A DNA stretch of 11,198 nucleotides, from the IMG/VR virus record IMGVR_UViG_2734482782_000002, positions 1-11,198 of that record, one strand, 5' to 3'. The notes beneath the pieces are model-generated. The model was not told the origin of the DNA. It saw only the letters and a program-made list of their open reading frames with translations, and did not search any database. The number at the start of each line of letters is the position of its first letter. The stretch's first letter is position 1. The DNA is from a virus (Duplodnaviria; Heunggongvirae; Uroviricota; Caudoviricetes). Shown piece after piece: positions 5,707-5,742 of the stretch. Both the position numbers and the translations under genes were made by a program.

Positions 5707-5742
5707 TGGTGGAGCTGGCGGGAGTTGAACTCGCGTCTGAAA
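5707..5742 (-). repeat. attR core: partial copy of the tmRNA (ssrA) 3' end
   Basis: Minus strand reads TTTCAGACGCGAGTTCAACTCCCGCCAGCTCCACCA, i.e. T-arm, acceptor 3' strand and CCA. As recalled it differs from the E. coli ssrA 3' end at two positions, both at the integrase-proximal end. No upstream tmRNA or tRNA body is present, so this is a fragment, not a gene. Confidence 0.7.

Follow-up and report, generated by a model that had tools for sequence, protein, structure and literature searches.

A 36-nt copy of the ssrA 3' end as the very probable integrase-proximal junction of a prophage with an LMessi/phiES15-like integration module in Escherichia coli

Described ssrA elements and the present locus

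Integration into tRNA and tmRNA genes takes place at one of three sublocations, the anticodon loop, the T-loop or the asymmetric 3' end, and the repeats that bound ssrA islands mostly comprise the final ~36 bases of ssrA (bioRxiv 10.1101/2020.11.02.365908). Elements integrated in ssrA sort into two groups, depending on whether the fragment found at their far end is intact or lacks T357 (PMC10107115 Table 1). CP4-57 carries a fragment without T357, so that its excision inactivates tmRNA and ribosome rescue switches to ArfA (PMC10107115). Fels-2, SopE-phi, SpaX and Ecoc48X integrate at the ssrA 3' end with a displaced far-end fragment ending in CGCCAGCTCCACCA (PMC10107115 Table 1, drawing on Williams 2003).

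The DNA analyzed here (the window) is the whole stretch of 11,198 nt. Its ssrA-like fragment also ends in CGCCAGCTCCACCA, and as for these four elements, excision would be expected to leave a wild-type ssrA. Two differences separate the window from them: they use P2-type or CTX-phi-type integrases, whereas the integrase of the window has an Arm-DNA-bind_2 N-terminal domain and shares 94% identity with its counterpart in phage LMessi; and their integrase gene lies next to the intact ssrA, whereas the int gene of the window lies at the fragment end. The same gene is the target of CP4-57 in E. coli K-12 and of CP4So in Shewanella, and these elements, too, end on the far side in a displaced 3' fragment of ssrA. 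In CP4-57, however, a P4-type IntA adjoins the intact ssrA and the fragment has lost T357, which the window retains (position 5713); therefore, a regulatory switch of the CP4-57 type is not predicted here.

Homologous integrases are encoded by the Escherichia phages LMessi (PP925823), PhiR12_1 to PhiR12_5 and LLS (PQ299149) and by Cronobacter phage phiES15. These are phage genome records that display attP, whereas the window displays what is very probably the integrated P-O-B' junction. Our literature search returned nothing relevant on the PhiR12 phages and nothing on the integration site of phiES15. The organization of the window is lambda-like in that int points toward the att site and is overlapped by an upstream xis, the integrase includes a domain for arm binding, and phased repeats and an IHF-like site are present in the arm. 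Lambda differs in having an intergenic attB with a 15-bp core, whereas here the phage inserts into an RNA gene and has to supply it with a new 3' end. The name attR, which we keep, is right in the tRNA-gene convention, where the junction with the intact gene is attL; in the lambda convention, the int-adjacent junction would itself be called attL.

The ssrA-like fragment and its two flanks

Positions 5742 to 5707 of the window, on the minus strand, read TTTCAGACGCGAGTTCAACTCCCGCCAGCTCCACCA, and the 3' end of the annotated 363-nt ssrA gene of E. coli NZ_CM147701.1 reads TTTCGGACGCGGGTTCAACTCCCGCCAGCTCCACCA. The fragment is identical to the last 36 nt of the gene (ssrA positions 328 to 363) at 34 of 36 positions, both differences being G-to-A changes in the ssrA sense, at window positions 5738 and 5731. 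All 24 nt from 5707 to 5730 are those of E. coli ssrA and span the last base of the T-stem, the T-loop, the 3' strand of the T-stem, the 3' acceptor strand and ACCA. With up to three mismatches permitted, this is the sole match to the ssrA end in the window, and none of 200 dinucleotide-preserving shuffles contained any such match.

The fragment does not amount to a tmRNA gene. ARAGORN returned no tmRNA and no tRNA over the window, and the Rfam tmRNA model scored 25.2 bits at the fragment against a gathering score of 47, with an alignment that is genuine for the 3' ~31 nt only (T-arm, 3' acceptor strand and ACCA). The change at 5731 disrupts a G-C pair of the T-stem in the Rfam structure. The parts required for a functional gene, namely, the 5' acceptor strand, the tag reading frame and the pseudoknots, are absent, and no ssrA body is present in the window; in related copies, too, the ssrA query aligns at its 3' end only (ssrA positions 325 to 363). 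A preliminary description, made from the letters alone, had placed a T-arm, an acceptor strand and a CCA without tmRNA body on the minus strand at this position; its coordinates, strand, content and mismatch positions were right, and the 36-mer does match the tmRNA 3' end of a related lysogen, NZ_CM147701.1.

A mini tRNA-like structure formed by the fragment and an upstream 5' acceptor partner proposed by cmscan (5765-5773) was considered and rejected: the partner is not conserved in related copies, and the region folds no better than shuffled sequence (z = -0.8). The other Rfam matches in the window, to the LasI thermometer (9197-9282) and BjrC68 (1487-1534), lie far below their gathering scores and were taken as chance or a terminator hairpin.

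The DNA to the left of the fragment is chromosomal. A test construct joining the last 200 nt of ssrA to window positions 5706 to 5506 was found contiguous at 100% identity in E. coli, and the junction was covered over at least 80% in one place in 2525 of 5426 complete genomes. In sites without an insertion, ssrA thus runs directly into this sequence, which identifies the DNA immediately left of 5707 as the native 3' flank of the gene (B'). Beyond it, positions 1 to 5546 hold ypjCB (frameshifted), a pinH remnant and ypjA/ehaD in the chromosomal order of E. coli genomes. The genes beside the site are decayed: ypjCB is split into open reading frames (ORFs) at 1-615 and 630-1373, and ypjA/ehaD, intact and 4575 nt long in NZ_CM147701.1, is ~1.2 kb shorter here and broken into ORFs at 2157-3149, 3089-5191 and 5220-5546. 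The native flank includes a terminator hairpin that was overlooked by a consensus terminator scan and confirmed through folding (Table 1), a GGAGCCGCGGCTCC hairpin, a tandem motif, GATACGCAAAGGAGCCG, and GGAC-N7-RGAC pairs at 5632-5646 and 5683-5697.

From base 5707 rightward, the window is colinear with phage LMessi. The int gene is transcribed toward the fragment, as the preliminary description had said, and its stop codon (5866-5868) lies 123 nt away. Aligned to Tn1549 Int, the integrase presents the catalytic R, K, R, H and Y residues; by its arm-binding, core-binding and catalytic domains, it is predicted to be a heterobivalent (lambda-Int-like) tyrosine integrase. In its motif NPYQTRHTF, a Tyr occupies the place of the first His of the HxxR box (TPHAMRHTF in Tn1549 Int). 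Within the P arm, a sigma-70-like match on the minus strand (5825-5798) was dismissed as being at chance level. Small phage ORFs are present to the right of int and xis, along with the immunity region; the early region also encodes a protein with a ParE-like toxin domain (PF24732; 7813-8157, minus strand) and a second CI-like protein, an S24 peptidase without helix-turn-helix (HTH) (PHROG 6201; 8868-9260, minus strand).

Altogether, a native flank on the left and LMessi-colinear prophage DNA on the right agree with the earlier proposal of an attachment junction rather than a gene.

Table 1. Features of the attachment region and its surroundings (window coordinates unless another locus is named)
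Feature	Position	Strand or location	Basis
ypjA/ehaD autotransporter gene, convergent on the site, in three ORFs (pseudogene); marks the chromosomal side	2157..5546	+	ORFs, genome comparison
Native ssrA 3' flank (B' arm)	5556..5706	-	Contiguous with ssrA in unoccupied E. coli sites
Intrinsic terminator hairpin in native flank, dG -16.8 kcal/mol, z = -3.7	5557-5582	ssrA strand (-)	Folding
ssrA 3'-terminal fragment, 36 nt; very probable attR (P-O-B') junction	5707..5742	-	Sequence match, Rfam, shuffles
Block identical in attB, attP, attL and attR, 24 bp, GTTCAACTCCCGCCAGCTCCACCA	5707..5730	-	Comparison of copies; PMC10107115 Table 1
T-loop TTCAACT between T-stem arms GCGAG (5730-5734) and CCCGC (5718-5722); candidate 7-bp overlap	5723..5729	-	Rfam structure line
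Phage-borne degenerate ssrA-like P-arm segment with both mismatches	5731..5742	-	Recurrence in phage/viral copies
Rest of phage P arm, int stop codon to ssrA-like segment	5743..5865	-	Conserved non-coding blocks
IHF-like TTCAATGAGTTAA, candidate accessory site	5748-5760	P arm	Conserved block
Tandem ATGCACGTAAAATGCAC, candidate arm-type site	5794-5810	P arm	Conserved block
11-bp-phased GGAC repeats, candidate protein sites	5817-5842	P arm	Conserved block
Tandem motif copies, candidate arm-type sites	5794-5810 and 5597-5613; L002 1392-1408 and 1588-1604; L005		Position/sequence pattern
Tyrosine integrase, 390 aa; Arm-DNA-bind_2 (PF12167), SAM-like, Phage_integrase (PF00589)	5866..7038	-	Domain matches
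Excisionase, PHROG 2917, E = 1e-40; true start probably internal to the ORF	6993..7253	-	PHROG match
CI-like repressor, HTH + S24	9918-10622	- (immunity region, 9918..10909)	Domain matches
Cro-like HTH protein, divergent from the CI-like repressor	10685-10909	+ (immunity region)	Domain matches

Phage and lysogen counterparts

The same module is found in free phages. In LMessi, attP consists of a P arm like that of the window, then ATTCGGACACGGGTTCAACTCCCGCCAGCTCCACCA, then a P' arm beginning CTTTTGATAGGACTGC. Amino acid identity to the integrase of the window is 90% for PhiR12_5 and 66% for LLS, next to the value given above for LMessi, and the phiES15 int gene is about 88% identical at the nucleotide level. 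LMessi, PhiR12_5 and LLS all have int followed on the same strand by a 35- to 39-nt mimic of the ssrA 3' end, which the LLS record already annotates as "tmRNA pseudogene / attP."

Two lysogens supply the other prophage end, as the window stops 5.5 kb into the prophage and the evidence for an intact ssrA comes from these relatives. NZ_CM147701.1 matches 84% of the window at 95.6% identity and holds an intact wild-type ssrA followed directly by an LMessi-type P' arm; at the other end of its prophage stand int, then TTTCGGACGCGAGTTCAAC...CCACCA, the native flank and ypjA. A distance of 38,959 bp separates the two CCA ends, the intact ssrA and the attR fragment have the same orientation, and the window is colinear with this 39-kb prophage through its last base. 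NZ_CM194531.1 (L006), the closest relative of the host region, is 99.7% identical over window positions 1 to 6434 and has the same attR junction, and its ssrA is intact and followed by an LMessi-type P' arm; here, the prophage has collapsed to a ~2.4-kb remnant adjoining that ssrA. The remnant (L006 6408-9213) comprises a truncated int, a tail-fibre assembly gene, a pin-type recombinase and dinI, and keeps a 133-bp piece corresponding to window positions 11066 to 11198. In both relatives, the intact ssrA is at the far end of the element, where the preliminary description had expected it.

The origin of the two mismatches was traced in the same way. When IMG/VR was searched for exact copies of the GCGAG-containing fragment in which a non-chromosomal base follows CCA, ten contigs were retrieved, every one of which encodes the same integrase (98 to 99.5% amino acid identity) followed on the same strand by a 36- to 37-nt ssrA-like segment, with an ssrA body in none of the ten. 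The 5731 variant occurs in all ten viral contigs as well as in the related loci L001 and L006, and both window variants (5731 and 5738) occur together in one viral contig, L014 (TTTCAGACGCGAG). The positions of the mismatches vary among phages: LMessi (GACACGGG), PhiR12_5 (GATACGGG) and LLS (ACGGGCGCGGG) have different ones in the same 12-nt segment, while their mimics all equal ssrA from GTTCAAC through CCA. In lysogens NZ_CM147701.1 and NZ_CM194531.1, the ssrA at the other prophage end is wild type.

Because the variants of the window recur in phage and viral copies beside the same integrase, positions 5731 to 5742 are phage DNA, and strand exchange therefore took place within 5707 to 5730. 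As the whole 36- to 37-mer already exists in the phage attP, the fragment is a chimera to which the phage contributed 12 nt or more and the original gene no more than 24 nt. The placement of the mismatches on the phage side, asserted in the preliminary description, is borne out by these copies. The 24-bp block of identity is an upper bound for the crossover region, as distinct from a mapped core.

In several viral contigs (L008-L011, L013-L015 and L004), near-identical modules of int and P arm are joined after CCA to at least three unrelated types of P' arm, most of which have a terminator ~35 nt after CCA. Such variety suggests that P' arms are exchanged as modules or that the source genomes contain ssrA elements in tandem arrays.

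Proposed integration, alternative readings and meaning

We consider it very probable that a temperate phage with an LMessi/phiES15-like integration module has inserted itself into the 3' end of E. coli ssrA and that the 36-mer is the junction (P-O-B') on the integrase side of the prophage. In the model we propose, the attP of the phage would carry its own 36- to 37-nt imitation of the end of ssrA, a short distance past int, and the heterobivalent integrase would exchange strands within the 24-bp identity between attP and attB. We infer that the exchange most likely occurs at the T-loop, flanked by the inverted arms of the T-stem, with the seven bases of the loop as the overlap. Both mismatches would then sit in 5731-5742 because the bases 5' of the exchange point are phage DNA. 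After integration, the P' arm of the phage would complete ssrA and supply its own terminator, and the original ssrA 3' end, with its native flank and terminator, would be displaced to the far end of the prophage, beside ypjA. If the prophage is active at present, as we also infer, its excision by Int and Xis should give back an ssrA of normal sequence: whatever in the fragment comes from the chromosome is wild type, T357 included, and the two mismatches, being on the phage side, would be carried away with the excised element.

A junction that is genuine but belongs to a defective remnant, with ssrA only a few kilobases past the window and the site a fossil, is the alternative that deserves most attention, and we judge it unlikely. 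It draws on the closest relative of the host region, NZ_CM194531.1, with its 2.4-kb remnant and truncated int, and on the match of window positions 11066 to 11198 to a piece kept in that remnant. The int of the window, however, is full length and 98 to 99.5% identical to the copies in the viral contigs, xis, the CI-like repressor and cro are intact through position 11198, and colinearity with the 39-kb prophage of NZ_CM147701.1 extends to the last base.

The two other readings are less probable still. If the window were a free phage genome, or the boundary between two tandem elements, the 36-mer would be an attP or a hybrid site. P-O-P'-type arrangements with the same P arm are indeed known in LMessi and in viral contigs, several of these contigs combine that P arm with different P' arms so that some may be tandem-array junctions rather than true attP, and the P' arm of phage LLS matches the flank at 5556-5706 with 88% identity. 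Against this stand the continuation of the left flank into ypjA, the pinH remnant and ypjCB in E. coli chromosomal order and the presence of the identical flank abutting ssrA in genomes without insertion, which make such an arrangement very improbable. A decaying ssrA pseudogene, or a partial duplication through chromosomal rearrangement with mismatches due to random decay, deserves practically no credence: the 5731 mismatch recurs beside the same integrase in independent phage and viral contigs, L014 has both mismatches, and phage and chromosomal homology end exactly at the breakpoints, even though the fragment is non-functional and one mismatch disrupts a T-stem pair.

The native flank itself merits comment. 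In the P' arm of phage LLS (L005 2501-2652), ~150 nt are 88% identical to window positions 5556 to 5706; the LLS attP thus looks like an attR, as would be seen either if the phage captured the host flank or if the host flank is a fossil P' arm. All four GGAC-N7-RGAC matches of the 11.2-kb window (5632-5646, 5683-5697, 5817-5831 and 5828-5842) are on the minus strand, two on each side of the fragment in one orientation with 11-bp phasing; 0.41 would be expected by chance, and none of 200 shuffles reached four. Moreover, both arms have a tandem motif with 11-bp phasing whose distance from the core is constant and whose sequence tracks the type of integrase. With integrases of the window/LMessi type, the tandem ATGCACNTNAAATGCAC (ATGCAC...) occupies position -80 of the P arm and position +93 of LMessi-type P' arms; the -80 copy is found in every P arm with a window-type integrase, missing solely from the decayed L006 copy, and the +93 copy is absent from the other (non-LMessi-type) P' arms compared. 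In the LLS type, GGTACG/GATACA is at -78 and GATACGCAAAGGAGCCG at +94, and the native E. coli flank has the LLS-type motif (GATACG...) at +94, i.e., at window positions 5597 to 5613.

The conservation extends beyond E. coli: at 41 loci in many genera of Enterobacterales, the proximal part of the layout, GAT-N-GGAC-N7-GGAC, directly adjoins the CCA of ssrA or of a 3' fragment of it, and the aligned flanks of 42 copies keep the phased GGAC/GAC motifs. An RNA-structural reason for this conservation was rejected, as RNAalifold on the 42 flanks gave zero consensus pairs. The phased GGAC and tandem motifs may be protein-binding sites; phage P' arms may have originated from the native flank, or the flank may itself be a fossil P' arm. 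That the native ssrA 3' flank is a conserved, phage-P'-arm-like landing pad and not neutral chromosomal DNA is nonetheless a speculation that we hold to be quite unlikely. Were the motifs functional sites for Int or accessory proteins, "empty" ssrA sites would really be complex, attL-like sites that LLS-like phages left behind as fossils or whose flanks evolve in step with such phages, and the attR of the window would be functionally attP-like.

The arrangement described here is well known and ordinary, the same int-att module is already in public records, and nothing new is added to the biology of site-specific recombination. The value of our analysis is mainly for annotation: it fixes one boundary of the prophage by placing the start of the element at or within 5707-5730, it shows that the gene used for integration is ssrA, and it makes the attachment sites predictable, with an attB reading ...GGACGCGGGTTCAACTCCCGCCAGCTCCACCA joined to ATCATGATTGG... 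and including wild-type T357, and an attP reading ...TTTCAGACGCGAGTTCAAC...CCACCA followed by the P' arm. For the host, loss of this prophage is predicted to leave tmRNA intact, in contrast to excision of the CP4-57 type and its switch to ArfA-dependent ribosome rescue.
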